A stretch of 40,939 bases of DNA from a virus (IMGVR_UViG_3300038379_000537:1-40939); one strand, 5' to 3'; shown: positions 5,724-25,035, counted from the first letter of the stretch. The notes: generated by a model not told the origin, from the sequence alone. Program-made: numbers and translations.

Positions 5724-6854
5724 CTATCCGTTCCAAATCTTTACAGCCTCGTCCCGCGATAAAGCCGGGCCGATATATTCAAAAGTGCCTCTTATTCTTT
5801 CAGAAAATGAAAATCGCCGAGTGCCAAACCCGACAAATGACATGTCTTTCGGCATAGCTTGGATTGTATTATTTGGCTTGGCAATCATGCGCCAATTATT
5901 CGATCTTGCCCTTGTTTTAATCATGGCCGGGTGGGAAGTTTGAGAAATAAACGAATATCCAAGACCCCGACAAACCGAACCGATATATGCGCTCATTGCA
6001 TTTCCAATGCCCACACCCTGAAAATCGGGCAAACAAACTGTTCGATGCTCCCGTTTTGTGTTTTTGCGCCGGGGGTGAGGAAAATGCAAAATAGCTGTGA
6101 ACGCCACAGGAACACCATCCCAAAAAGCACAAAAACAAACGGCGGATGAATTTAGCGATGTGCTCAAATAATGATGCTTCCGAAATAATTGCCAAGCGGA
6201 CGAATGTACGCGCTTAATTTCAAGCCGAATTTTGGGACGCCGAAGGAACCTCCCGTCCGCAAATTCGTTTGTTGCGGGCTGATAAATCCAATCAGGCTCC
6301 AGCCATTCGGCAATATCGTAATGGCATGAAACAGCAATAAACTTTTGATTTCTGCTTCGCACAGTTTTTGCAATTGCGAAGCTTCCAATTTTCGCGACTG
6401 TTCTATCCACGACGCTGGTGAATTCGTCCATCACTGAAATTTCTCGATTTTCCGCCAGCATACGTGCCATATTGACTCGGAATTGTTCCCCATTTGACAA
6501 AACTCGGAATGGACGCAGCCACGAAGGAGGAGAGGAAAACCCAACAGATGAAAGCAAATCTGTTATTTCCTTGATGCTCATCTCTTTGGGAAAATTGTCA
6601 ACAATGCTATTTTCCTCCGACCATTGCCAGTCTTTGACAACATATTTGCCAAATAATTCTCTTGCCACCGTGCTTTTTCCACTTCCGCTGGGGCCGACGA
6701 TCAATCCGACATTCCATTCCTGCGGCAAATCAAGATCAATTGTCCATTTTTCAAAACTTTTTTCAGATGGCGAAACGTCAAAAATTCCCTCAAGCTGCAT
6801 TACTCGCGGCGTCCTTCTGATATTAGTCTCTCTCAGGATAGTAACGCCCGGCAT
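5724..6854 (-). CDS. ABC-type ATPase fused to GNAT acetyltransferase (putative DNA-modification enzyme)
   Basis: Walker A GPSGSGKST, signature LSNGEQFR, Walker B VMDEFTS, H-loop SCHYD; C-terminal GNAT motif RTVCLPDFQGVGIG and FRKHHYL. Confidence 0.85.
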   Translation of the reverse strand: MPGVTILRETNIRRTPRVMQLEGIFDVSPSEKSFEKWTIDLDLPQEWNVGLIVGPSGSGKSTVARELFGKYVVKDWQWSEENSIVDNFPKEMSIKEITDLLSSVGFSSPPSWLRPFRVLSNGEQFRVNMARMLAENREISVMDEFTSVVDRTVAKIGSFAIAKTVRSRNQKFIAVSCHYDIAEWLEPDWIYQPATNEFADGRFLRRPKIRLEIKRVHSSAWQLFRKHHYLSTSLNSSAVCFCAFWDGVPVAFTAILHFPHPRRKNTKREHRTVCLPDFQGVGIGNAMSAYIGSVCRGLGYSFISQTSHPAMIKTRARSNNWRMIAKPNNTIQAMPKDMSFVGFGTRRFSFSERIRGTFEYIGPALSRDEAVKIWNG

Positions 6855-7399
6855 TGTATGCCCTCCTCCAGAAATCGCTCCAGTAATTGCATCTGCTTTT
6901 CCTCATTTTCGCATGTTATCAAAATTAAATATTGCTCTGGAATTATTTCGGGCTTGTCCTTCCTTTCGATTATATCAAAGCCGGCAAGTTCCAATTCCCT
7001 TTTATCGAACCCCCACTCCAGCAGATCATCCACCTCGAAAAAATTAGCCAGCTTGTCGAAGTCGAATGAACCGACATTCTTACGCAAACGGACAACAAGC
7101 TCCTGCCGTTCCCTCTCAGTCAATTTGCGCGATGGAATTCGGACATCGACAAGCGTATCGGGTGAAATCTTGTTAATCTGCAATTCCACCATTTTCCGCT
7201 GATGACCATCCAGGAGCGGCAGACCTTTTTGGCCGTTAGGAGGCGCGGCTGCCACATAGGGGATTACATGCTCGAATTTTTCCAGGGACTTTGAAAGCTC
7301 CTGGGCATCACGCTTGGAAAGCTGAACGGGATTTTTATCCCATTCGACCAGGTCTTTTAGTTTTACACGCCTTGTCATCCAGGTCAACTTCTCGGCCAT
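6833..7399 (-). CDS. ParB/Srx-like N-terminal domain protein
   Basis: LVEWDKNP..SLEKF..LLDGHQR motif; upstream of the GNAT and terminase genes. Confidence 0.75.
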   Translation of the reverse strand: MAEKLTWMTRRVKLKDLVEWDKNPVQLSKRDAQELSKSLEKFEHVIPYVAAAPPNGQKGLPLLDGHQRKMVELQINKISPDTLVDVRIPSRKLTERERQELVVRLRKNVGSFDFDKLANFFEVDDLLEWGFDKRELELAGFDIIERKDKPEIIPEQYLILITCENEEKQMQLLERFLEEGIQCRALLS

Positions 7400-7796: not shown

Positions 7797-7907
7797 CCGC
7801 CTGATTGTACTCCCCGCCTGCACATCACCACCAGGTGATGTGCAGGCCGGACGGCACAATCAACCGTCTAACCATAACCCACCCGGCGGGGTGCGCCGGG
7901 AGAAAAG
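7797..7907 (+). repeat. Structured intergenic repeat, copy 1
   Basis: 94 bp identical to 8767-8860; hairpins GCCTGCACATCACC/GGTGATGTGCAGGC and CCCGGCG/CGCCGGG, followed by an RBS. Confidence 0.92.
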
Positions 7908-8351: not shown

Positions 8352-8455
8352 CTCCCGCCTGCACATTACCTGGTAGTAATGTGCAGACTGACTGGGCACA
8401 AGCCTGCCGCTTACACCACCAACCCCACCCGGCAGGGATATGCCGGGAAGGAGAA
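8352..8455 (+). repeat. Structured intergenic repeat, diverged copy 2
   Basis: CTGCACATTAC/GTAATGTGCAG and CCCGGCA/TGCCGGG stems with compensatory changes relative to copies 1 and 3. Confidence 0.85.
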
Positions 8456-8459
8456 TGAA

Positions 8460-8774
8460 ATGAACATCACGCGCAAGACTGCAAGCTATAACGCCCGCCG
8501 CTACGGACGCCCCTGGATTGCCCGGGTAACATTTGACACGAACGGCAAGGCCAGTTACGACTGGGGGAATTGGATAGGCACAATTGAGGGGGGTAACGGA
8601 TCGGCCGGTGAGCTAGTCATCACAGTCAATGAGGGGGACATTGTGGCCACCGGCCACAAGGACTTGCGGAAAGGTCCAGCCAATATCAATTATTGGCTGG
8701 TCCGGGATGGTCAGCTGGTACACCTTGACAAAGCCGAGGCCTACCGCATATATACAGCCGCCCCCGCCGCCTGA
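8460..8774 (+). CDS. Hypothetical early protein
   Basis: AAGGAG SD; YNARRYGRPWIARV motif. Confidence 0.8.
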   Translation: MNITRKTASYNARRYGRPWIARVTFDTNGKASYDWGNWIGTIEGGNGSAGELVITVNEGDIVATGHKDLRKGPANINYWLVRDGQLVHLDKAEAYRIYTAAPAA

Positions 8775-8881
8775 TTGTACTCCCCGCCTGCACATCACCA
8801 CCAGGTGATGTGCAGGCCGGACGGCACAATCAACCGTCTAACCATAACCCACCCGGCGGGAATGCGCCGGGAGAAAAGGAG
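8767..8881 (+). repeat. Structured intergenic repeat, copy 3
   Basis: Identical to copy 1 over 94 bp. Confidence 0.92.
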
Positions 8882-13249: not shown

Positions 13250-13849
13250 ATGAGCAAAAGTATTCACGAGGCAATTAACGCTGTCATGGGGGAGGTCGGA
13301 TATGTCAAAAAAACGAGGTCCGACAAATTGAGTTATTCCTTCGCCGGAGAAGCGGCGCTGATCTCGGCGCTGCGTCCGGCAATGGTCGAGCAGGGAATTT
13401 ACATGCACGTTCTCGAAATCAGGGGGATCACGCGGCAGGAATATTCGACCAAAAGCGGGACAAGCATGGTGAATACCGTCATTCAGGCGGTGGTTAGATT
13501 CACCCATGCCCCGTCCGGAACGTCCATTGACACAGCCGCGGTCGGCGAAGGGTCAGACGCTGGGGATAAGGGAGCCAATAAAGCCATGACCGGCCTGTAT
13601 AAGTATGCCCTGCGTCAAACATTCTGCATCGAAACCGGCGATGACCCGGATAAGTTTGCCAGCGAGGAGCGGGCTGTCCCCAAAGAATATCGCCAAAAGC
13701 TGATTGAACGGTATGATGCTCTGTCCAAAGAGGCCCGAAAATTCGGCGTGGAAGTTTACGACCTGAATGAGCATATGCAGGATGAAGAAATAACAGAAGC
13801 CGGAGTTGAATTGAAGAGCCGGCTGGATGCGGCAAAGGCGGGTAAATAA
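13250..13849 (+). CDS. erf: ERF-family ssDNA annealing protein
   Basis: YSFAGEAALISALRPAM..GEGSDAGDKGANKAMT..KYAL..TGDDPD motif. Confidence 0.88.
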   Translation: MSKSIHEAINAVMGEVGYVKKTRSDKLSYSFAGEAALISALRPAMVEQGIYMHVLEIRGITRQEYSTKSGTSMVNTVIQAVVRFTHAPSGTSIDTAAVGEGSDAGDKGANKAMTGLYKYALRQTFCIETGDDPDKFASEERAVPKEYRQKLIERYDALSKEARKFGVEVYDLNEHMQDEEITEAGVELKSRLDAAKAGK

Positions 13850-14855: not shown

Positions 14856-14883
14856 TGTACATTCCGTATAAACATAGTTAGCC
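14856..14883 (+). other. attI-like recombination site A
   Basis: TGTACATTCCGTATAAACATAG|TT matches 23/24 nt of the motif at 19595; its GTTAGCCAGAT is the exact reverse complement of ATCTGGCTAAC (15023-15033), which opens the next attC. Confidence 0.75.
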
Positions 14884-14896
14884 AGATAGGAGAAAA

Positions 14897-15136
14897 ATGA
14901 AGCCTTTCTTTGTCGTGTTCTTTAGTTCGTTTGGCGCGTTTGTTGGCGCGGTTATGGGCACAAATGGTTACGGTTGGCGCACATGGCAATTTTATGTCGT
15001 GCTTGCTTTGCTTTGCTTAGTCATCTGGCTAACAAAGCGTGCACTGGACTGGGCTAATGCGCCCACGAAAGAGCAGGCTCGGCGCAATAAGTTTCTGCGC
15101 GAACATTTCGGTCCTCCAAAATCGCCCAGCCAGTAA
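14897..15136 (+). CDS. Cassette A1: small two-TM membrane protein
   Basis: AGGAG SD; two hydrophobic stretches; reads through its attC. Confidence 0.75.
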   Translation: MKPFFVVFFSSFGAFVGAVMGTNGYGWRTWQFYVVLALLCLVIWLTKRALDWANAPTKEQARRNKFLREHFGPPKSPSQ

Positions 15137-15151
15137 CGCAAACCGTTCGGC
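15027..15151 (+). repeat. attC site A1
   Basis: GGCTAAC..GCGTGCACTGGACTGGGC / GCCCAGCCAGTAACGC..GTTCGGC with two unpaired bases in the stem. Confidence 0.9.
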
Positions 15152-15170
15152 GGCTTCCTTTAGGTGGCTT

Positions 15171-15440
15171 ATGTATATGTTCTTTGTAGGTTTGAAAGCA
15201 AAATGGGAGTTGCGAGAAATTGATGGTTGTCCTCCCTGTCCTTCTTGTGGTCACAAACACCGTTTCAACGGTTGTGTTTGCGGGTGCGAGAACAAAGCAT
15301 GGCGAGAGTATCCGCCTGTTCCCTGGTGGGTGCGTCAGATATGGTTTTGGATTTACGATATTTCCTTCCATTTCAGCCACCTGACAAAGCATGCAGCGGA
15401 TGGTGGCAACGCCGCGTCAGAGTTTAGTAATTTTGAATAA
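15171..15440 (+). CDS. Cassette A2: Cys-rich hypothetical protein
   Basis: ORF between GTT core and attC; CPSCGH..CVCGC. Confidence 0.7.
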   Translation: MYMFFVGLKAKWELREIDGCPPCPSCGHKHRFNGCVCGCENKAWREYPPVPWWVRQIWFWIYDISFHFSHLTKHAADGGNAASEFSNFE

Positions 15441-15488
15441 TTATCAGGTCTTGCGTTCACCCACCACCGCTAACGCAAACCGTTGGAG
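15379..15488 (+). repeat. attC site A2
   Basis: ACCTGAC..GCATGCAGCGGATGGTGG / CCACCACCGCTAACGC..GTTGGAG. Confidence 0.88.
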
Positions 15489-15497
15489 GACACTCGC

Positions 15498-15797
15498 ATG
15501 AATGAATATACCCAAGCATTAGAACGTGTCGCTAAAATATCGGCGCAAATTTACAAAGTAACTAGCCTAGCGTTTGCCCGCACAAAACAAATATGTTGCT
15601 CGCATGGTAACTGCCCGTCATATCCTACTCATGCGTGGTGGTGTGATAAATGCTGGTTCGAGTTGAAAGACGCTCTTGATGAGTTAGAGTCCTTCCAAGA
15701 AACCGCCCTGAAAGAAATCTTTGCTGGCAGTCAGTCTGCCCAACAAGGGCGTGAACCCGGCAAGGGCAACGTCCCGGAGCCGGTGAAGTCGGAGTAA
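15498..15797 (+). CDS. Cassette A3: hypothetical protein
   Basis: GGAGG SD inside the GTT core; Cys/His cluster. Confidence 0.7.
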   Translation: MNEYTQALERVAKISAQIYKVTSLAFARTKQICCSHGNCPSYPTHAWWCDKCWFELKDALDELESFQETALKEIFAGSQSAQQGREPGKGNVPEPVKSE

Positions 15798-15837
15798 TCT
15801 TGCGTTGCCCCTGCGGGTTACGTGCAGGCTGTTAGCC
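15738..15837 (+). repeat. attC site A3
   Basis: GCCCAAC..GCGTGAACCCGGCAAGGGCAACG / CGTTGCCCCTGCGGGTTACG..GTTAGCC. Confidence 0.85.
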
Positions 15838-15855
15838 GTCACTGAAAGGATAAAT

Positions 15856-16128
15856 ATGACTGCACACATTCACAGCTGGAATTGGGTGGTGGTGGGGTGG
15901 ACAATCTGGGCTGAGTGCTCAAAGGATTTTTGCGGGGCAACCGTCTCTCTTGTCGACATTGCGGAGATGGCAAAAGATATTCCTTACTGCGGCCCCATTT
16001 GCCCGTATTGCCGGGAATCATTACACTATAAGCCAACAAAAACTTGCGGCGGGCTGACACAGCGTACACCCGGCTTTGAGCAGGCTGTGGCGAATGACGA
16101 TGATCCAGGCGATGCCCCAAGCGGGTAA
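15856..16128 (+). CDS. Cassette A4: Cys-rich hypothetical protein
   Basis: AAGGA SD; CPYC motif; stop inside the attC. Confidence 0.7.
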   Translation: MTAHIHSWNWVVVGWTIWAECSKDFCGATVSLVDIAEMAKDIPYCGPICPYCRESLHYKPTKTCGGLTQRTPGFEQAVANDDDPGDAPSG

Positions 16129-16140
16129 CGCAAGTCCAGG
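16052..16140 (+). repeat. attC site A4 (degenerate, GTT core lost)
   Basis: GGCTGAC..GCGTACACCCGGCTT / AAGCGGGTAACGC followed by AAGTCCAGG instead of ..CCGTT. Confidence 0.7.
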
Positions 16141-16146
16141 AGAAAT

Positions 16147-16503
16147 ATGGACGCGCAAATTGAAACACTCGATGAGCAAACAGAAAAAGAAATTGAAGTC
16201 GCGCTGGGTGAATTGCGAAGCATTCAGTTTTCAGACAACACACATACTCAGGCAGTCGAAGCGCGTGAAGAAGTTGAGATCATTATTCGCGCATTGGCAA
16301 AACGTCTAACACAGCGTGCATGCGAATGGCATCTTGACGATGACGAAGCAGGCGCATGGGAATCTGCGTGTGGTGAATTGTGGTGCTTTGGAGATGGTGA
16401 TCCAAAAGATAATGGCATGCAGTATTGCCCGTTCTGTGGTTGTCATCTAACACAGCGTGTGCCTGACGCTTCGCCGTCAAGCTCACAAGCGGACGAGCTA
16501 TAA
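16147..16503 (+). CDS. Cassette A5: hypothetical protein, probably two fused cassette ORFs
   Basis: Internal attC left-arm remnant GTCTAACACAGCGTGCA at 16304-16320; C-half ends in YCPFCG. Confidence 0.7.
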   Translation: MDAQIETLDEQTEKEIEVALGELRSIQFSDNTHTQAVEAREEVEIIIRALAKRLTQRACEWHLDDDEAGAWESACGELWCFGDGDPKDNGMQYCPFCGCHLTQRVPDASPSSSQADEL

Positions 16504-16533
16504 GGCTCGCGCAGGTAACGCAAACCGTTAGGT
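16445..16533 (+). repeat. attC site A5
   Basis: ATCTAAC..GCGTGTGCCTGACGC / GCGCAGGTAACGCAAACCGTTAGGT. Confidence 0.85.
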
Positions 16534-16537
16534 GCTT

Positions 16538-16714
16538 ATGGAAACAGACATTGAAATTCATATTCTGAAAGACGGTACGCCAATTATTACCGCAATTGTC
16601 GCAGGTCGCCCAATCGCAATGACATCTTTTGAATGGCAGTTGTTTTGCCGTGATATGCTCTGCGCAATTGAAACGCACCTGACAAAACATGCACCTGCGG
16701 AAGGAGAAACGTGA
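16538..16714 (+). CDS. Cassette A6: hypothetical protein (left-arm-only attC at 16675-16700)
   Basis: Cassette start GTTAGGTGC pairs with GCACCTGAC at 16675. Confidence 0.7.
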   Translation: METDIEIHILKDGTPIITAIVAGRPIAMTSFEWQLFCRDMLCAIETHLTKHAPAEGET

Positions 16715-16932
16715 TGAACGTAGGTCAACTGAAAAAGATGTTGGAACAATATCCTGATGATATGGAAATCCTGAATAGACGTTGCAGCGATTATGAAATT
16801 ATCTCAGAAGACGAATGGCATGTTGTTCAGGGTGTCGAGAATGAAGGTGGCTGGGTAATGCGCTCACACCCTACTATGAGTGACGAAAATAAGCGTAAAG
16901 AAAAATCTTATTTGTATCTTGAAGGAAATTAA
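16711..16932 (+). CDS. Hypothetical protein (attC remnant at 16936-16955)
   Basis: AAGGAG SD; MNVGQLKKMLEQYPDD N-terminus typical of small phage proteins. Confidence 0.75.
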   Translation: MMNVGQLKKMLEQYPDDMEILNRRCSDYEIISEDEWHVVQGVENEGGWVMRSHPTMSDENKRKEKSYLYLEGN

Positions 16933-16991
16933 CACGCTCAACAAAGCGCGCAAAAGATTGTTGTAAAAATAGGCAAGAGGAAGGAGAAACT

Positions 16992-17321
16992 GTGAAAAAT
17001 AAGTATTTTTGTGTAGCAATAACTTTTTGGCAATATGTTTGGATGGGCGTAAAAGATGTGTTTACAGATAAAGAAGCCCAAAGTAAAAGTTTTCAAAGCA
17101 GGATGATTTCAAGTGTATTTGGAGTCTTAATTGGCCTGGCGCTTGGAAGCCTTATGGCTTTTGCAATAAAGTTCTTTAATATATTTGATATTTTTGCAAA
17201 GTGTGTTGTCGGCTTTTTTATCTTTGTTTGTGTGGTGGATTTGATTTGTGCAATAATTTTTCTTTTCATAAGTTGGCGCAAAGCCGTCAATGATTGTTGG
17301 GATAAATTCCACGCAGGCTGA
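16992..17321 (+). CDS. Hypothetical membrane protein (attC left arm at 17316-17346)
   Basis: AAGGAG SD, GTG start, two TM segments; followed by GGCTGACAAAGCGTGCAGCGGAC. Confidence 0.75.
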   Translation: MKNKYFCVAITFWQYVWMGVKDVFTDKEAQSKSFQSRMISSVFGVLIGLALGSLMAFAIKFFNIFDIFAKCVVGFFIFVCVVDLICAIIFLFISWRKAVNDCWDKFHAG

Positions 17322-17360
17322 CAAAGCGTGCAGCGGACAAGTGGCAGGAGGAGGTCTTTT

Positions 17361-19594: not shown

Positions 19595-19622
19595 TGTACA
19601 TTCTGTATAAACATAGTTGTGC
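19595..19622 (+). other. attI-like recombination site B
   Basis: TGTACATTCTGTATAAACATAG|TT; its GTTGTGCGC is the reverse complement of GCGCACAAC (24022-24030), which opens the next attC. Confidence 0.75.
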
Positions 19623-19649
19623 GCTTGTTGCGAAAGGATAGGTGTCCCT

Positions 19650-19820
19650 ATAATTTGCTCAAATATTTACGGCGTGGTGCGTGATAACCCTGGCATTCGG
19701 GCGGGCAAAATCGCCGCCTTGCTAAACGTCCAACGCTCACAGATAACCCGCGCGTTGCCGCAAATGCAAAGGCGCGGATACTTATTGAGCGAATATAAAA
19801 ACAGGTTATTTGCTTTCTGA
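19650..19820 (+). CDS. Small winged-HTH (MarR-like) protein; start uncertain, possibly truncated
   Basis: VRDNPGIRAGKIAALLNVQRSQITRALPQMQRRGYLLSE HTH pattern; no clear in-frame ATG. Confidence 0.55.
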   Translation: MICSNIYGVVRDNPGIRAGKIAALLNVQRSQITRALPQMQRRGYLLSEYKNRLFAF

Positions 19821-19850
19821 AACCTGAATGAACCTAAAAGGAAAAATGAA

Positions 19851-21353
19851 ATGAAACTTACAAATGATACCGTAACAAAAGTTGTCTCTGTGCTTGGCTC
19901 AATGATGAACAGCGCAACCGTCACTGGCAAGGGGAACAAACTTGATTTTTATGCCGACAGAGTACGGCAGGCAACGACAAAGCCTGATTTGGTAACTACC
20001 CTGAATCGCTTCGGAGAATTGCTCGGCTCATCCGCTTTGCAGGGCGAAGATTTGAAAAATCTTTTGCTGGCTGGAAAAGCGCAGGACGCAAAAGCGGTTT
20101 ATCAATGGTTGCGCGAATTGCCGCGTTTGCCAGTTGGAATCGCAAAAGAAAAATTGGCAGACCAGCCCGCGTTGATTGAAGCAGTTTGCGACACATACGA
20201 GGCGCAGGAAGTCGCCATCGGCGCACTTAAGCCGCGCCCGAAATTTGACATTAATATGACCGCCACAGTTTTACAGGCTTTATCTCATGGCGCAGATACC
20301 AAAGCGGGAAACGCTACGCTATTTCGCCGCGCAAAAGTTCGGGGCGGAATGGAATTACCTTTCTTTTCCGCGAATGCAATTGGCGGCATTATGCGTGATT
20401 TGCTTTCCGACCATTTCACCGTTGCGATGGGGTTCAAGGTTGACCGCGCCGACCCAATTTGGGATACATGGTTTTTCCATCTGCTATATAGCGGCGGCAT
20501 TATGCAAGATGGATATATCCCCAAAGAATTTGAGCGCGTTCTTACTGGCGCGGCGGCTGGAACTGTCCGCAGTGATGGCGTGCGTCAGTTGCGCTCCATG
20601 CTTCCGTTCTTCTCTGTTCTTGGTGGCGTTGGAAAGCATCCCATCGAAGGTTATATTTTCATAAATGACCTTCGCCCCAAATGTATTGAATGGGGAAACG
20701 GCGGAGAAAAGTCAGTCAACAGCATGATGGACTGGCGTTATATCACGCGCCCTGATAACTACGAAGGACGTACCAGCAAGGCGCAGAAAGAATCGGGCGA
20801 TACAGCCAGCGACGACACTCAAAACACTTCGATGATTGCAAATGCGGAATGCTTGCAGGAAGGCGAAGTCTTGGAAGGCGGATTTTTCCTATCCAGCCAC
20901 ATGACAGAAATCGAACGCGCCGCGCTGTATAAAGGTTTGACCCTGCTCAAAGAATATGGCTATCTTGGCGCAAAGGGTCATCGCGGATATGGCTTGTGTG
21001 CAATTGACTATCAAACTGATTTGGTCATTGACCCCAAGCCATATGATGATTATCTCGCCGCGAACAAGGATGAAATTATCGGCTACCTGAAAGGCATTGG
21101 CGCGTTTCCGAAGGCAGAGAAGGCAAAGAAAGAAACTCAGAGTAAAAAGCAAGAGAAGATTTTCAGTAGCGATGGAGCGTATGACGCCACTAATGATGTT
21201 GCAAGAATCATTCGTGTGTGCGCGACGCATGGAGATAGTTTTACACCCGAAGAAGCACGTGACAGATGGGAAGATATATCAAGTGGTATTGCTGGATGGC
21301 TATCACTTCCAGTATCAGATGATGAACTTTACGAATACTTCGAGAAACGCTAA
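19851..21353 (+). CDS. csf2: Type IV Cas7-like RAMP (Csf2) with N-terminal Cas11-like helical domain and C-terminal extension
   Basis: ALSHG..GNATLFRR, LPFFSANAIGGIMRD, FHLLYSGG, LRSMLPFFSVLGG, and G-rich loop LGAKGHRGYG characteristic of Csf2/Cas7. Confidence 0.85.
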   Translation: MKLTNDTVTKVVSVLGSMMNSATVTGKGNKLDFYADRVRQATTKPDLVTTLNRFGELLGSSALQGEDLKNLLLAGKAQDAKAVYQWLRELPRLPVGIAKEKLADQPALIEAVCDTYEAQEVAIGALKPRPKFDINMTATVLQALSHGADTKAGNATLFRRAKVRGGMELPFFSANAIGGIMRDLLSDHFTVAMGFKVDRADPIWDTWFFHLLYSGGIMQDGYIPKEFERVLTGAAAGTVRSDGVRQLRSMLPFFSVLGGVGKHPIEGYIFINDLRPKCIEWGNGGEKSVNSMMDWRYITRPDNYEGRTSKAQKESGDTASDDTQNTSMIANAECLQEGEVLEGGFFLSSHMTEIERAALYKGLTLLKEYGYLGAKGHRGYGLCAIDYQTDLVIDPKPYDDYLAANKDEIIGYLKGIGAFPKAEKAKKETQSKKQEKIFSSDGAYDATNDVARIIRVCATHGDSFTPEEARDRWEDISSGIAGWLSLPVSDDELYEYFEKR

Positions 21354-21354
21354 C

Positions 21355-22089
21355 ATGCACGCCACAGACCTAATTGCAACGTGCATGACGGACGAACAGA
21401 AAGAGCCGCTTCCCGAAGCGGCTCAAACTGGCGTTTGCTGTGTATCAGGCGCGGAAACGCTGACCATCCAGCGCAAGCATTTATTCGGCGCAAACTTCAA
21501 CGACCTGAATATTCTCGTATGCCCCGACTCTTCACGAGTCGGGGTGAATGTCTGGTATGCGTTCAAGTTCGGGGAGCCTGGCATAAACCCAGAAACAGGC
21601 GAAGTGAACAAGCGTAAGAAGTACAAAGAAATGCAGATGTGTTGGTGGACGGATGGCGAAACATTCCGTGAGATGAACAAGGCAAAAATCCGCGAATTGG
21701 TTTTGCGCGGAACGACGTCAAAGCGTTGGGCGGGATGGGTTACTACATCCTATAAAAAGCATGGCTCTTTGCGCTCGCCTGTCAACAATACACCTTTTGG
21801 CATTTGGGGCTTCGATGGTTTGCAAGTCCGCGCCAATGACAAAGAGCAAGTATTGACAATGTGGGCAAAATTGCGAGACGCGCAAAAGAACGGCATTGGG
21901 CGCACAGGCATCGAGACGCTTGATATTCCAGTCCCCATCATGTCTAAAGTTGGAATTGTATTTTGCAACGATTTTATCTTGTGGGCGCGTCCGCTTGTTC
22001 AATCGCCGTTATATCAATTCCTGACTTATCTTTTGCCAAGTCAGGAAGAATTGAAAGAAGGGTACAGCGATGAAAATTTGTATGATTGA
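21355..22089 (+). CDS. csf1: Type IV Cas8-like large subunit (Csf1-like)
   Basis: N-terminal GVCCVSG..FGANFND..CPDS (degenerate Zn finger), SYKKHGSLRSPVN motif; size and position between csf2 and csf3. Confidence 0.7.
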   Translation: MHATDLIATCMTDEQKEPLPEAAQTGVCCVSGAETLTIQRKHLFGANFNDLNILVCPDSSRVGVNVWYAFKFGEPGINPETGEVNKRKKYKEMQMCWWTDGETFREMNKAKIRELVLRGTTSKRWAGWVTTSYKKHGSLRSPVNNTPFGIWGFDGLQVRANDKEQVLTMWAKLRDAQKNGIGRTGIETLDIPVPIMSKVGIVFCNDFILWARPLVQSPLYQFLTYLLPSQEELKEGYSDENLYD

Positions 22090-23332
22090 ATCTGTCCACG
22101 ATGAAGATACAGGGTCAATTGGACCTTACTTCGTGGCGGAAGCCGTGCGATCTTTAGGGCATACTGTTGACGTAATTCCTTTCGACTCTCCACGCCGACA
22201 TTATGACGTTGAATTGATTAGCGTGCATCATCCAGCCAGTTACCCTGTTTTTCAACAAACCCCGAAGCATGGAAAAATAAGAATCGTCGGCGGACACGTT
22301 ACCTATACAGACCCGCGTCCGCTTATACCTTTGAGTGACGTTGTTTGCGTTGGAGATGGGGAAGTGTGGATAAAGGACATCATACAAAAGATTGACGCAG
22401 ACCGCGATTATCTGAAAAAGGTTGAACATATCGAAGGCGCAATCTTGCCTGAATTTTGGAGCGTTGGCGATATACTTCCGCATCCCAACTTTATTCGTCC
22501 GCTGCTTAATAACCCGCCGTATCTAAGCAAGCCAGGAACATACAAGGCGGCTTGGTATGTTGAGATAGCAAGGGGATGTCCGTTTAGTTGCTCTTACTGC
22601 GAAGTGGGCAACTCTATGCCATACCGTCTCCACAAACTTGACGAAATTATTGAGACAATCAAAACGCTTGATACAAATCAGGCAAATAAAATTGTGTTCT
22701 TTGCTCCTGACGAAGCCAGTTATCCGAAATATGGCGAGTTGGTAAAAGTGGCGAAAGCGCACGGGATGCGGCAAGTTGTAGGGCTTTACCGCCTTGACCA
22801 AATTATGCGGCACGATTTGCAATTTGAACCTAATCAACTTATAAAAGTTGGAATAGATGGATTGTCAGAGCGTATGCGTTATCAAAATAAACGTCGAATT
22901 TCCAACGAAAATATTTATGATTACTTCAAACTTCTTACTTCGCGTGGTCATAAGTTTTTTAAGGCATACCAATTATTCAGCCTGCCGAACGAAACAGAAG
23001 ATGATTTTTACGAATGGGAAGCGCTTATGGAACGAGTGCGGGCTATCCCTGTTCGTGAAACGGTTAAGTTTATGATTGCCTGGTCTCCATTGATTCCACG
23101 TCCTAAAACGCCTTTCGCAAACGAAACTCCGCATTACGACACGAAGGTAGCAAAGTTAATAAAAAATTGGCATAAGCGCGTTGCAGTGCCAGATAGCGAT
23201 CCAGGCTGGCAAATTGACTTTGAACGAATGCAGGGAACAAAAACATATCAAAAAAATGTAGAGATGTATTCTGGAAACGAGTTGTCTTTGATTGAAGGCG
23301 CAAGTTATATACATCCTGCTTGGAGACAATAA
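22070..23332 (+). CDS. B12-binding-domain radical SAM enzyme
   Basis: EIARGCPFSCSYC (CxxxCxxC); N-terminal IVGGHVT..DVVCVGDGE cobalamin-binding-like domain; GIDGLSERMR, LPNETEDD, PLIPRPKTPF. Confidence 0.9.
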   Translation: MKICMIESVHDEDTGSIGPYFVAEAVRSLGHTVDVIPFDSPRRHYDVELISVHHPASYPVFQQTPKHGKIRIVGGHVTYTDPRPLIPLSDVVCVGDGEVWIKDIIQKIDADRDYLKKVEHIEGAILPEFWSVGDILPHPNFIRPLLNNPPYLSKPGTYKAAWYVEIARGCPFSCSYCEVGNSMPYRLHKLDEIIETIKTLDTNQANKIVFFAPDEASYPKYGELVKVAKAHGMRQVVGLYRLDQIMRHDLQFEPNQLIKVGIDGLSERMRYQNKRRISNENIYDYFKLLTSRGHKFFKAYQLFSLPNETEDDFYEWEALMERVRAIPVRETVKFMIAWSPLIPRPKTPFANETPHYDTKVAKLIKNWHKRVAVPDSDPGWQIDFERMQGTKTYQKNVEMYSGNELSLIEGASYIHPAWRQ

Positions 23333-24012
23333 TGAGCAAACCTAAATTGAATCCGTTGAAAGTCACGTTTGAAATGGACATTGCAGGCGCGATATATGAC
23401 CCGTTTGTTCCGCCGACATTGGACGGTATCATTGATTGGTGTCTCTCGCCGATGGTGAGACAATCCAAGTCTGCGCCGACGCGGGGCGGAGAACCCGAAG
23501 AAATCCGCCTACCATTTGGCACTTGGCGCGTTGGTAAACATTGGGGCTGGTGCGCGTCTGCCCTGCAACCGCTGGATGATGAAACCGTGATGACATCTAT
23601 CCGCTATTGGCGTAAGCGATTCCGCGAGAACAAAATATCAATGGTGAATGGTGTTATCAATACGCAAGCTGGAGCAATGCGCGATTACAACTTGCCTTTT
23701 GAAGTGCAACATCCAACATCATTAACGGCTTATTGTGTAGCAGACAGGCATACCATCCATGACCTTTTGCGCCGCAACTTGAAATACATCGCCAAGAAAA
23801 AACATCGCGGCATGGGATTGGTGACTGACTTTTCGGTTGAGATTATTGCAGATGATTACTCTTTGATGTGCGACGGTAAAGCAATGCGCTGGTTGCCGAC
23901 TGCGGAAGGCTTGCGCGAAGTCCGCTTGCGCCCGCCATATTGGAATAATAACGAGCGCGTGGCGTGTTGCGAAGTTGGAGACGAGTATCATGGCGCAATC
24001 AGTCAACCGTAA
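23332..24012 (+). CDS. csf3: Type IV Cas5-like RAMP (Csf3)
   Basis: PLKVTFEM..TLDGII, WCASAL, YWRKRF, C-terminal G-loop YIAKKKHRGMGLV, RWLP..RPPYW; TAATG overlap with the radical SAM stop. Confidence 0.82.
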   Translation: MSKPKLNPLKVTFEMDIAGAIYDPFVPPTLDGIIDWCLSPMVRQSKSAPTRGGEPEEIRLPFGTWRVGKHWGWCASALQPLDDETVMTSIRYWRKRFRENKISMVNGVINTQAGAMRDYNLPFEVQHPTSLTAYCVADRHTIHDLLRRNLKYIAKKKHRGMGLVTDFSVEIIADDYSLMCDGKAMRWLPTAEGLREVRLRPPYWNNNERVACCEVGDEYHGAISQP

Positions 24013-24023
24013 AAACAAAACGC

Positions 24024-24150
24024 GCACAACACCGCTTGCACCCGACAAGTGGGATTCTGTGCCTTTTCTGGCATTGTCCACGCTTTGAGTTTTTCCACAT
24101 CTCGAAGTTTATCCAAGCCCGCCCACTTGCGGGTAAAGCAAAAGTTCGGC
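24024..24150 (+). repeat. attC site B1 (closes the Cas cassette)
   Basis: GCACAAC..GCTTGCACCCGACAAGTGGG / CCCACTTGCGGGTAAAGC..GTTCGGC. Confidence 0.9.
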
Positions 24151-24174
24151 GGCACGCCGAAGAAAGTAGGTAAC

Positions 24175-24405
24175 GTGGATTTTTCTTTCTGTAAATGTGG
24201 TCACTACCACTCGTCACATAGTTTCGGGAAAGGTTGTAGGTATTGCGATTGCAAATTAAGTGATGTCGAAGTTGTATCCGCGAACTCAGAAGCCGCCGAA
24301 CACCGTATGCACCTGACCGCCTTTGGCGTGGGTACTGCGGCGGTAATTCCCCTGCAAGCGTCACTGTTTGCGGATGACCAGCCCGCTACAATCGGCGGCA
24401 GGTAA
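24175..24405 (+). CDS. Cassette B2: small Cys/His protein
   Basis: GTG start; CKCGH..H..C..CDC; stop inside the attC. Confidence 0.6.
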   Translation: MDFSFCKCGHYHSSHSFGKGCRYCDCKLSDVEVVSANSEAAEHRMHLTAFGVGTAAVIPLQASLFADDQPATIGGR

Positions 24406-24420
24406 TGCAGTCCGTTGGAA
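24295..24420 (+). repeat. attC site B2
   Basis: GCCGAAC..GTATGCACCTGACCGCC / GGCGGCAGGTAATGC..GTTGGAA. Confidence 0.88.
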
Positions 24421-24430
24421 GGCTAAAGCG

Positions 24431-24973
24431 ATGTTGTATCCGATAATTTACGCAGACCCACCGTGGAGATATGAGTACCCTCCAATGGGCGCAAGTAACC
24501 GAAGTATTGAGAACCATTATCAAACCATGACCATCGATGAAATAAAGGCTATGAATATCCCTAGTGCAAGCAATGGCGTTCTTTTTTTGTGGGCAACCGC
24601 TCCGAAGTTGAAAGAGTGTATTGATGTAATGCTTGCTTGGGGTTATCAATATAGAACGTGCATGTCATGGGACAAAGAAGTTATTGGCATGGGTTACTGG
24701 TTTCGTAATCAGCATGAATTACTCCTTGTTGGCTTAAAAGGTAAGTTTTCTCCACCAGTGCCGTCGCAAAGAATGTCAAGTGTATGGCGCGAGAAGCGCA
24801 CGAAACACAGCAAGAAGCCAGATGGTATCCGTGAGTGGATAAGTTCCTGTTATCCCAATGTTCCAAAACTGGAGTTATTCGCTCGGCAAAGAGTTGAGGG
24901 TTGGGATGTGTTTGGGAACGAAGTAGAAGGTTCTATACGCCTTCCAACAAAGCGTGAACCCGACAAAAACTAG
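24431..24973 (+). CDS. MT-A70-family N6-adenine methyltransferase (cassette B3)
   Basis: IYADPPW, LFLWAT, GMGYWFRNQHELLLVG, HSKKP, KLELFAR, GWDVFGNE. Confidence 0.92.
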   Translation: MLYPIIYADPPWRYEYPPMGASNRSIENHYQTMTIDEIKAMNIPSASNGVLFLWATAPKLKECIDVMLAWGYQYRTCMSWDKEVIGMGYWFRNQHELLLVGLKGKFSPPVPSQRMSSVWREKRTKHSKKPDGIREWISSCYPNVPKLELFARQRVEGWDVFGNEVEGSIRLPTKREPDKN

Positions 24974-25035
24974 AGTCGGGCAAAATTATCAGGTTCGGCG
25001 TTCCCCGTTTTTGCGGGTTACGCAAGCCGTTGGGC
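24942..25035 (+). repeat. attC site B3
   Basis: GCCTTCCAAC (complement of cassette start GTTGGAAGGC)..GCGTGAACCCGACAAAAAC / GTTTTTGCGGGTTACGC..GTTGGGC. Confidence 0.9.

Follow-up and report, generated by a model that had tools for sequence, protein, structure and literature searches.

The genome of a tailed phage, IMGVR_UViG_3300038379_000537 (40,939 nucleotides; referred to throughout, in its whole length, as the window), carries a four-gene operon that is an array-less, type IV-B-like CRISPR effector module, in which a radical S-adenosylmethionine (rSAM) enzyme stands where the signature gene of that subtype, cysH, is expected. The rSAM operon is a real and recurrent IV-B-like variant. Beyond the original prediction, which was made from the sequence of the window, the analysis identifies a probable Cas11-Cas7 fusion, boundaries like those of an integron cassette, and the presence of CysH or IbrA/IbrB on the same csf core in most of its relatives. 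The phage record is approximately 41 kb, 99% complete, with a 121-nt terminal overlap, and includes portal, terminase, capsid, tail, DnaB, ERF and SSB genes by Pfam. The operon consists of the following genes.

19851..21353, + strand: Csf2/Cas7 (residues ~130-420) with a probable Cas11-like domain (residues ~1-115) fused to its N-terminus, 500 aa (PADLOC, Foldseek)
21355..22089, + strand: Csf1, the Cas8-like large subunit, 244 aa (PADLOC)
22070..23332, + strand: Csf-dedicated rSAM, 420 aa, with an N-terminal Rossmann domain predicted to bind cobalamin; a divergent allele of lower guanine plus cytosine (GC) content (Pfam, structural model)
23320/23332..24012, + strand: Csf3, Cas5-like repeat-associated mysterious protein (RAMP), likely start ATG 23332 (TIGR03116, PADLOC)

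A type IV-B-like operon without CysH

The tight coupling of csf2-, csf1- and csf3-like genes in the original prediction is borne out, all four open reading frames (ORFs) lying on the + strand across 19851 to 24012. As was also predicted, the rSAM gene overlaps both of its neighbours, csf1 by 20 nt and csf3 by 13 nt if the latter starts at the TTG at 23320, or by 1 nt if it starts at the likelier ATG at 23332. The proteins have the RAMP and Csf folds that were proposed for them. The typeIV_Cas7 profile of PADLOC matches residues 134-429 of the 500-aa ORF (E 7e-37), and the best Foldseek matches of its AlphaFold model (predicted local distance difference test score, pLDDT, 87) in the Protein Data Bank (PDB) are type IV Csf2 chains, including 7JHY. 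Csf1 is matched by the typeIV_Cas8/Csf1 profile (E 1.3e-7), and Csf3 by PADLOC (E 2e-27) and by TIGR03116 (E 3e-20, below the family cut-off).

The absences also hold. PAPS_reduct, the profile for phosphoadenosine phosphosulphate (PAPS) reductases, has no match in the six frames of the phage record, nor do custom CysH and IbrA profiles. DinG, Cas6, Cas1/2 and Cas10 have no match among the 107 window ORFs scanned against PADLOC, and neither repeat scans nor Rfam reveal a CRISPR array. Thus neither the features of type IV-A (CasDinG, Cas6/Csf5 and an array) nor that of type IV-C (a Cas10-like HD large subunit replacing Csf1) were found in the window. There are no relatives of the window rSAM or Cas7 among GenBank phages; plasmids hold distant rSAMs only, and no cultured model was found.

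Linkage of the enzyme to csf genes and exclusion of CysH

A total of 137 fetched loci matching Cas7 were reduced to 104 by merging at 95% identity. The rSAM is carried by 17 of these, four of which were reached only through searches that started from the rSAM. PAPS-reductase-type genes are present in 68 (49 with CysH, 13 with CysH and IbrA, and 6 with IbrA), based on custom profiles of which representatives were checked in Pfam, L006 having no match there. None of the 104 loci has both types. Neither is present in the remaining 19, of which 16 have no Csf1 or Csf3 in the fetched DNA; of the other three, one stops 23 nt beyond csf3 and the remaining pair have other genes, a DUF4417-like protein (L281:995-2014) and a 310-aa protein (L273:3276-4208), which are further residents of the same slot. 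Restricting the count to loci that have Csf1 as well as Csf3 leaves 72, of which the rSAM alone is present in 15, a PAPS-type gene alone in 54, both in none and neither in three (Fisher 7e-13, which is overstated as the loci are related).

Approaching from the rSAM gives the same picture. All seven close rSAM loci from an alignment that was blind to context (A2) adjoin csf genes, as do 21 of the 22 rSAM-derived viral contigs from two further scans. These 22 were seeded with csf-linked proteins, and 10 of the 11 non-seed contigs agree; the only miss, L316, is half a gene in a repetitive contig. Many rSAM contigs have the canonical gene order, csf1-cas11-csf2-csf3-rSAM, and no CysH or IbrA is found in the flanks, up to 7 kb, of the contigs found through the rSAM. 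Amongst 152 distant rSAM loci, used as a control, there are no csf matches. The linkage, the exclusion and this control together rule out chance co-location. The pairing of csf and rSAM genes that the original prediction expected to recur therefore does so, and the enzyme is indeed in place of CysH, being a dedicated family that is in the same gene slot and mutually exclusive with it.

The PAPS-type genes are themselves varied. IbrA, a PAPS reductase with DUF3440, mostly accompanied by the ParB-like IbrB, is within the csf operon in 19 loci (for example L020:9126-10819), alone in six and beside CysH in 13. Other residents of the slot have weak DndC/BrxP matches or are paired with a ParB-like protein. 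The PP-loop of CysH is altered in many loci, with Gln for Asp in 14 of 64, including those closest to the window (for example L211:2580-3332). A pairing of related rSAMs with ParB was also considered and was rejected, there being no ParB among 59 of 126 listed neighbours, which are mostly sugar enzymes; this check used distant viral rSAMs, which may not be the nearest relatives.

Exchange of enzymes in the slot

Sister loci with a Cas7 that is 60-63% identical to that of the window carry CysH. In a quick IQ-TREE phylogeny of 85 Cas7 proteins from the fetched loci, from which the 19 loci without an accessory gene were left out, seven changes between rSAM and PAPS-type genes are needed, five of which are forced by branches with support of 95 or more. 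L053, L055 and L049 are on long branches in this tree. One clade unites L211 to L213, which have CysH, with L003, which has the rSAM.

The rSAM of the window is 46-49% identical to the rSAMs of its nearest relatives, which are themselves 81-84% identical to each other, and the gene has a GC content of 43% versus 47-50% for its neighbours. In L052, the csf genes share 89-92% identity with those of the window. The divergence of the allele and its low GC, coupled with the conservation of the csf genes in L052, indicate that exchange in the slot has extended to rSAM alleles, one having been replaced by another.

Free exchange of slot enzymes on near-identical cores would be expected if the rSAM, CysH or IbrAB were merely co-regulated cargo that modifies the phage DNA genome-wide while the Csf complex works separately. 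The presence of IbrAB beside CysH in 13 of 19 loci and of a second B12 rSAM in L055 and L297 fits such independence. Every full-length rSAM gene of the family that was found (21 of 21) is, however, accompanied by csf genes, and one-for-one exclusion with CysH is not expected of independent cargo, making this explanation very unlikely.

The radical SAM enzyme

The window rSAM is matched by Radical_SAM in Pfam (E 6e-12), and the CxxxCxxC motif read in it by the original prediction is present in all 118 members of the family. The description of the enzyme as cobalamin-binding fared less evenly: a Rossmann fold is predicted, yet the Pfam B12-binding family gives no match and the NCBIfam scores are far below cut-off. 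In the family as a whole these are TIGR04013 (118 of 118 members), TIGR03960 (110 of 118), a family linked to RNA modification, and TIGR04014 (74 of 118). The family is sharply bounded. There are about 17 near-full-length clusters, at 50% identity, scoring at least 280 bits, then a few near 190 bits, and the general background of B12 rSAMs begins from 150 bits. The nearest Atlas clusters to the window rSAM are viral.

The model of the enzyme (pLDDT 97) has as its best structural match MgmA (PDB 9CCB; E 4e-17, template-modelling (TM) score 0.64), with TsrM, CysS and AprD4 also among the top ten. MgmA is matched by sequence as well (E 7e-15, 17% identity). From the fold, the enzyme is predicted to bind cobalamin and to transfer methyl groups; this is also the fold of AprD4, which is a dehydratase. 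Additional observations are a weak match of the rSAM of L018 to a candidate defence rSAM, PDC-M51A (E 1.8e-8), and a second, different B12-binding rSAM located between csf3 and the Csf-linked rSAM in L055 (5523-7004) and L297 (5613-7016). Protein charge was considered as a clue to the substrate and is uninformative, the pI of the window rSAM being 6.8 and the family being only slightly more basic than other rSAMs.

The likeness to MgmA raises the prospect that the substrate is a protein, with the rSAM methylating a Csf subunit, or a host Cas or defence protein brought to it by the complex. MgmA is the best match in both structure and sequence, TIGR04014 is matched in 74 of the 118 members, and the PP-loop enzymes of the CysH type could conceivably adenylate proteins likewise. 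At 17% identity, the window rSAM scores 42 bits against TIGR04014, the MgmA family, for which the equivalog cut-off is 360, and MgmA is simply among the few compact B12 rSAMs that have been solved. A protein substrate is quite unlikely on this balance.

Small molecules have also to be considered as the substrate, with the complex, once triggered by its target, switching on an enzyme that makes a signalling or antiviral nucleotide used in competition with other phages. The fold matches include OxsB and further B12 rSAMs that act on small molecules, there is the weak match of the L018 enzyme to PDC-M51A, and CasCysH has been proposed to AMPylate or to make second messengers (PMC13676074). Neither a sensor nor an effector gene is conserved alongside the rSAM across its loci, and two unrelated enzymes would need to make interchangeable signals; this is the least probable of the explanations weighed here.

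A probable Cas11-Cas7 fusion, and Csf1

The original prediction listed no Cas11 among the genes of the operon. Cas11 is most likely not missing, being supplied as the fused N-terminal domain of the Cas7 ORF. Residues 1-115 are all-helical in the AlphaFold model. The fused proteins form a large family of 131, most of about 400-430 aa, with full-length coverage, and the family profile matches Cas11c in the PDB at positions 22-98 (E 7.7e-4), followed downstream by Cas7c (E 1e-14) and the Csf2 of 7JHY (E 8e-12). The typeIV_Cas11 profile has a weak match in four of five homologous N-termini (E 1.8e-5 to 0.045) and none in that of the window itself, and a profile comparison of the fused N-terminal domain with one free Cas11 gave no match. 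In L053 to L055, rSAM loci of canonical order, a free Cas11 is clearly recognised. The 70-residue helical tail of the fused protein is shared by L210 alone, with L001 having it as an ORF of its own. The 490-aa Cas7 of L299 (379-1851), where the rSAM is also present, has an apparent long helical insertion after its first strand and is possibly a second, independent Cas11-Cas7 fusion.

Position 149 of Cas7 is acidic in all 109 sequences (104 Asp, 5 Glu) and would, by position only, be the equivalent of Asp42 of Csf2. In Csf1, a TTSYKKH motif is nearly invariant, and the window protein lacks the second cysteine pair that is present in its canonical-order relatives.

Integron-cassette boundaries

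The csf operon is bounded like a single mobile integron cassette, a unit of about 4.5 kb (19617-24144) made up of a helix-turn-helix (HTH) gene and the operon. Its remaining features are these.

19595..19618, + strand: cassette entry point with its GTT core at 19616, putatively attI/attG-like; the motif ahead of the core recurs before the other array, at 14860-14879
19641..19820, + strand: small winged-helix HTH gene, likely regulator, first in the cassette (Pfam MarR E 1.4e-4, below cut-off)
24024..24150, + strand: attC-type site of 127 nt closing the csf cassette (attC boxes, likeness to host attC)

The DNA upstream of the operon, including the HTH gene, is conserved in L213 and L215. Nine bases from 19616 are exactly complementary (9/9) to 24022-24030, the inverse core of the attC after csf3. 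The corresponding ends are complementary in L213 (9/9), L211 (9/9) and L051 (10/10), where the sequences differ, and partly so in L210 (7/10), so the cassette ends co-vary. This rule is not seen in L052, L003, L212, L214, L216 and L005, and attC-type sites are detected in only 12 of the 104 loci; it follows that packaging as a cassette is limited to some members of a single clade.

Seven full attC-type sites are present on the + strand between 15027 and 25035, with none in 20 shuffles, although the matrices had been trained on these sites. The phage has two cassette arrays, 14860-17340 and 24024-25035, each opened by the same short motif, and fragments of attC at 16052, 16304, 16679, 16935 and 17316. 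An MT-A70 methyltransferase gene (24368-24973) is itself a cassette, with ends complementary at 10/10. The repeats D3 and D7 were considered as a degenerate CRISPR array and rejected, since they are attC ends.

No tyrosine recombinase, and so no integron integrase, was found in the phage; the cassette would presumably be mobilised by a host IntI. Matches to the csf attC occur in 26 of 401 genomes from the class to which G001, a metagenome-assembled genome (MAG) titled Anaerolinea thermophila, belongs. The site is 72-74% identical over approximately 116 nt to attC sites of a chromosomal integron in G080. There, at least 31 attC-like sites form an array next to an integron integrase gene, and 9 or 10 complementary bases are reached by 27 of 30 neighbouring cassettes. 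IntI scores above cut-off in four of the five genomes of the class tested, including G001; none does in G120. On a 3.6-kb contig of G001 (L130, G001:C237), a csf-rSAM cassette is directly after an attC end, and this copy may be in a host integron rather than a prophage. No joint from an excised csf cassette was found among those listed; attC-attC joints had sides of at most 28 nt and were set aside. Among the titles and beginnings of abstracts in the literature searched, none describes a type IV operon as an integron cassette.

Probable hosts and CRISPR pressure

One further feature of the window concerns its host.

13378..13413, - strand: near-match (32/36) to a type I-C spacer of G120, within the ERF gene

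This is the match of one of the 158 spacers in the type I-C array of G120; the next-best match has nine mismatches and shuffled sequence has ten. Short host matches in G109 and G287 were discarded as spacers, not being in arrays. Together, the spacer match, the attC match and L130 point to hosts in the Anaerolineae and to CRISPR pressure on the phage group.

In one relative, a degenerate mini-array (L251:567-846; ~37-nt repeat, 73-nt period) is immediately upstream of a fused cas11-cas7 locus with CysH; one of its spacers has no exact match in IMG/VR. A Cas6e gene (L053:5777-6364) is within a canonical-order locus, csf1-cas11-csf2-cas6-csf3-rSAM, which has no array in 15 kb.

Proposed mechanism

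Since the enzymes that occupy the slot are unrelated group-transfer enzymes, present singly, the slot most likely holds the effector of the complex. This suggests that type IV-B complexes probably act by placing chemical marks on nucleic acids and not by cutting them. For the phage operon, we tentatively favour, at somewhat less than even confidence, a complex that loads host CRISPR RNA (crRNA) and binds matching DNA, with the rSAM C-methylating the bound nucleic acid as a counter-defence. The fused Cas11-Cas7, which would fix the ratio of the two subunits at 1:1, would polymerise along RNA, with Csf1 and Csf3 capping the filament in the manner of the solved type IV complexes. The guide would be supplied in trans, most plausibly by a host type I-C array, and the target would be DNA, as with types IV-A and IV-C. 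In other loci the slot enzyme, CysH or IbrA, would adenylate or thiolate; here, a 5'-deoxyadenosyl radical and methylcobalamin would place a methyl group on an unactivated carbon, comparable to the action of RlmX at the ribose C5' of rRNA. Host defences would then no longer recognise the marked target, and host IntI would allow the unit to pass between the integrons of the host and the phage. A wider proposal is that IV-B systems are RNA-guided writers, Cascade-like scaffolds with a plug-in enzyme slot. In this variant, crRNAs that the host makes against phages would direct radical C-methylation to a sugar or base of DNA or RNA, locating and protecting just those sites open to attack by the host, and the system would travel as one integron cassette. 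This proposal is rather doubtful as a whole.

There is precedent for parts of this. Types IV-A and IV-C are reported to bind double-stranded DNA, with IV-C using crRNAs from distant arrays (PMC13676074), and RlmX is described in a review as a cobalamin-dependent rSAM that methylates the ribose C5' in 23S rRNA (PMC13602947). Within the loci, QxxLF is at the C-terminus of 7 of 89 Csf1 proteins versus 6 of 416 other ORFs (p 0.003, for a pattern chosen post hoc). This clamp-binding-like motif is in keeping with a DNA target. The Cas6e gene within L053 and the mini-array of L251 fit the use of guides, and the 32/36 spacer match of G120 fits CRISPR pressure on the phage.

Several observations weigh against this counter-defence mechanism. 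The rSAM and CysH exchange on Cas7 cores that are 60% identical to that of the window, and such ready exchange is difficult to reconcile with an extensive and specific interface between enzyme and core. The nearest enzyme in solved structure and in sequence, MgmA, is a protein glutamine C-methylase, and the remaining top structural matches are mostly small-molecule enzymes. The window rSAM is not basic, its family being slightly more basic than other rSAMs, and the clamp-like motif is absent from the proteins of the window. Loss of the second cysteine pair may mean that DNA recognition by Csf1 has changed. The G120 spacer has four mismatches, with a TTC one base off the expected position of the protospacer adjacent motif. 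Except in L251, no guide source or conserved non-coding element was found in the window or in 93 upstream and 67 downstream flanks. Finally, in the one IV-B complex whose structure is solved, the bound RNA was heterogeneous, 55-60 nt long and not derived from CRISPR (PMC7937560).

The RNA in that complex leads to an explanation in which the filament is a sponge for guides, capturing small RNAs such as the crRNAs of the host, which the rSAM then methylates as a chemical lock that blocks reloading into host Cascade. In keeping with this are the matches, below cut-off, of 110 of the 118 rSAM members to TIGR03960, a family linked to RNA modification, the acidic residue at Cas7 position 149 in 109 of 109 proteins, equivalent by position only to Csf2 Asp42, and the example of RlmX as a B12 rSAM that acts on RNA. 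Csf1 and Csf3, though, are strongly conserved and would be superfluous in a pure sponge; the clamp-like motifs on some Csf1 point to DNA, as do the IbrA/ParB and DndC-like residents of the slot. Capture and locking of guides is unlikely, though likelier than the other alternatives given above.

Other features of the window

An exact 94-nt direct repeat with a palindromic core is at 7797-7890 and 8767-8860, with a third, partial copy at 8354-8386; the copies separate small unannotated ORFs. At 5724-7399 (- strand), an ABC-ATPase/GNAT fusion is next to a weakly ParB-like gene, beside the terminase. A pair similar to these comes after csf3 in L317.

Significance

What type IV-B systems do has long been an unanswered question. 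CysH is still described as enigmatic in its role in the 2025 classification (PMC12669027 supplement), and the function of IV-B as unclear in a paper of 2026 (PMC13676074). Repeated one-for-one substitution of CysH by a chemically unrelated enzyme implies that the slot holds an effector whose job is group transfer and not sulphur metabolism. A methyltransferase would also be far easier to read out than CysH, through S-adenosylhomocysteine and 5'-deoxyadenosine and a labelled product of +14/+17 Da, and the probable Cas11-Cas7 fusion should simplify reconstitution. If guide-directed, the system would be a natural, programmable tool for C-H methylation and a new strategy of counter-defence. Judging by the cassette boundaries, integrons may be able to transfer entire CRISPR-derived operons between phages and hosts.

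No description of a variant with an rSAM for CysH was found in the literature searched, where subscription papers and supplements, such as the neighbourhood tables of Pinilla-Redondo 2020, could mention one. The term 'radical SAM' has no matches in the readable supplement text of PMC12669027, in which one file was unreadable. In the one paper naming both rSAM and IV-B, the mentions are unrelated.

Comparison with known systems

Described IV-B systems, which have csf1-cas11-csf2-csf3 with a cysH-like gene, include that of Mycobacterium sp. JS623 (PDB 7JHY) and, in viruses, those of Fuxivirus (PMC10541130) and a Methanoperedens virus (10.1101/2023.08.02.551345). The phage operon shares with them Csf1, Csf2, Csf3, probably a Cas11-like unit, and one accessory enzyme in the operon, the lack of an array, Cas6, adaptation genes or a nuclease, and location on a mobile element. 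Unlike IV-B, its accessory enzyme is a B12-type rSAM and not CysH, its Cas11 is, probably, fused to Cas7, its gene order is cas11/7-csf1-enzyme-csf3, its Csf1 has no second cysteine pair, and its bounds are cassette-like.

The best profile matches of the fused protein, Cas7c and Cas11c, are to type IV-C of Pyrococcus abyssi (PDB 11FS; PMC13676074), to which crRNAs are supplied from distant arrays, comparable to the supply of guides proposed for the phage. The phage system differs in having no Cas10-like HD nuclease and in having Csf1 and a separate enzyme. With MgmA, or QCMT (PDB 9CCB; PMC11796369), the phage enzyme has in common a compact Rossmann domain and rSAM barrel (TM 0.64, profile positions 17-321). 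It is nonetheless only 17% identical and far below the family cut-off, and MgmA acts on MCR in methanogens, in a different context. RlmX, as described in a review (PMC13602947), is of the same class of enzyme and is a precedent for anaerobic methylation of a nucleic-acid backbone, whereas it is a stand-alone rRNA enzyme. Finally, the clusters of attC sites in phages without an integrase (PMC9892861) likewise have attC sites and no integrase gene of their own; the difference is that here a single cassette, of 4.5 kb, appears to hold a five-gene CRISPR-derived operon.

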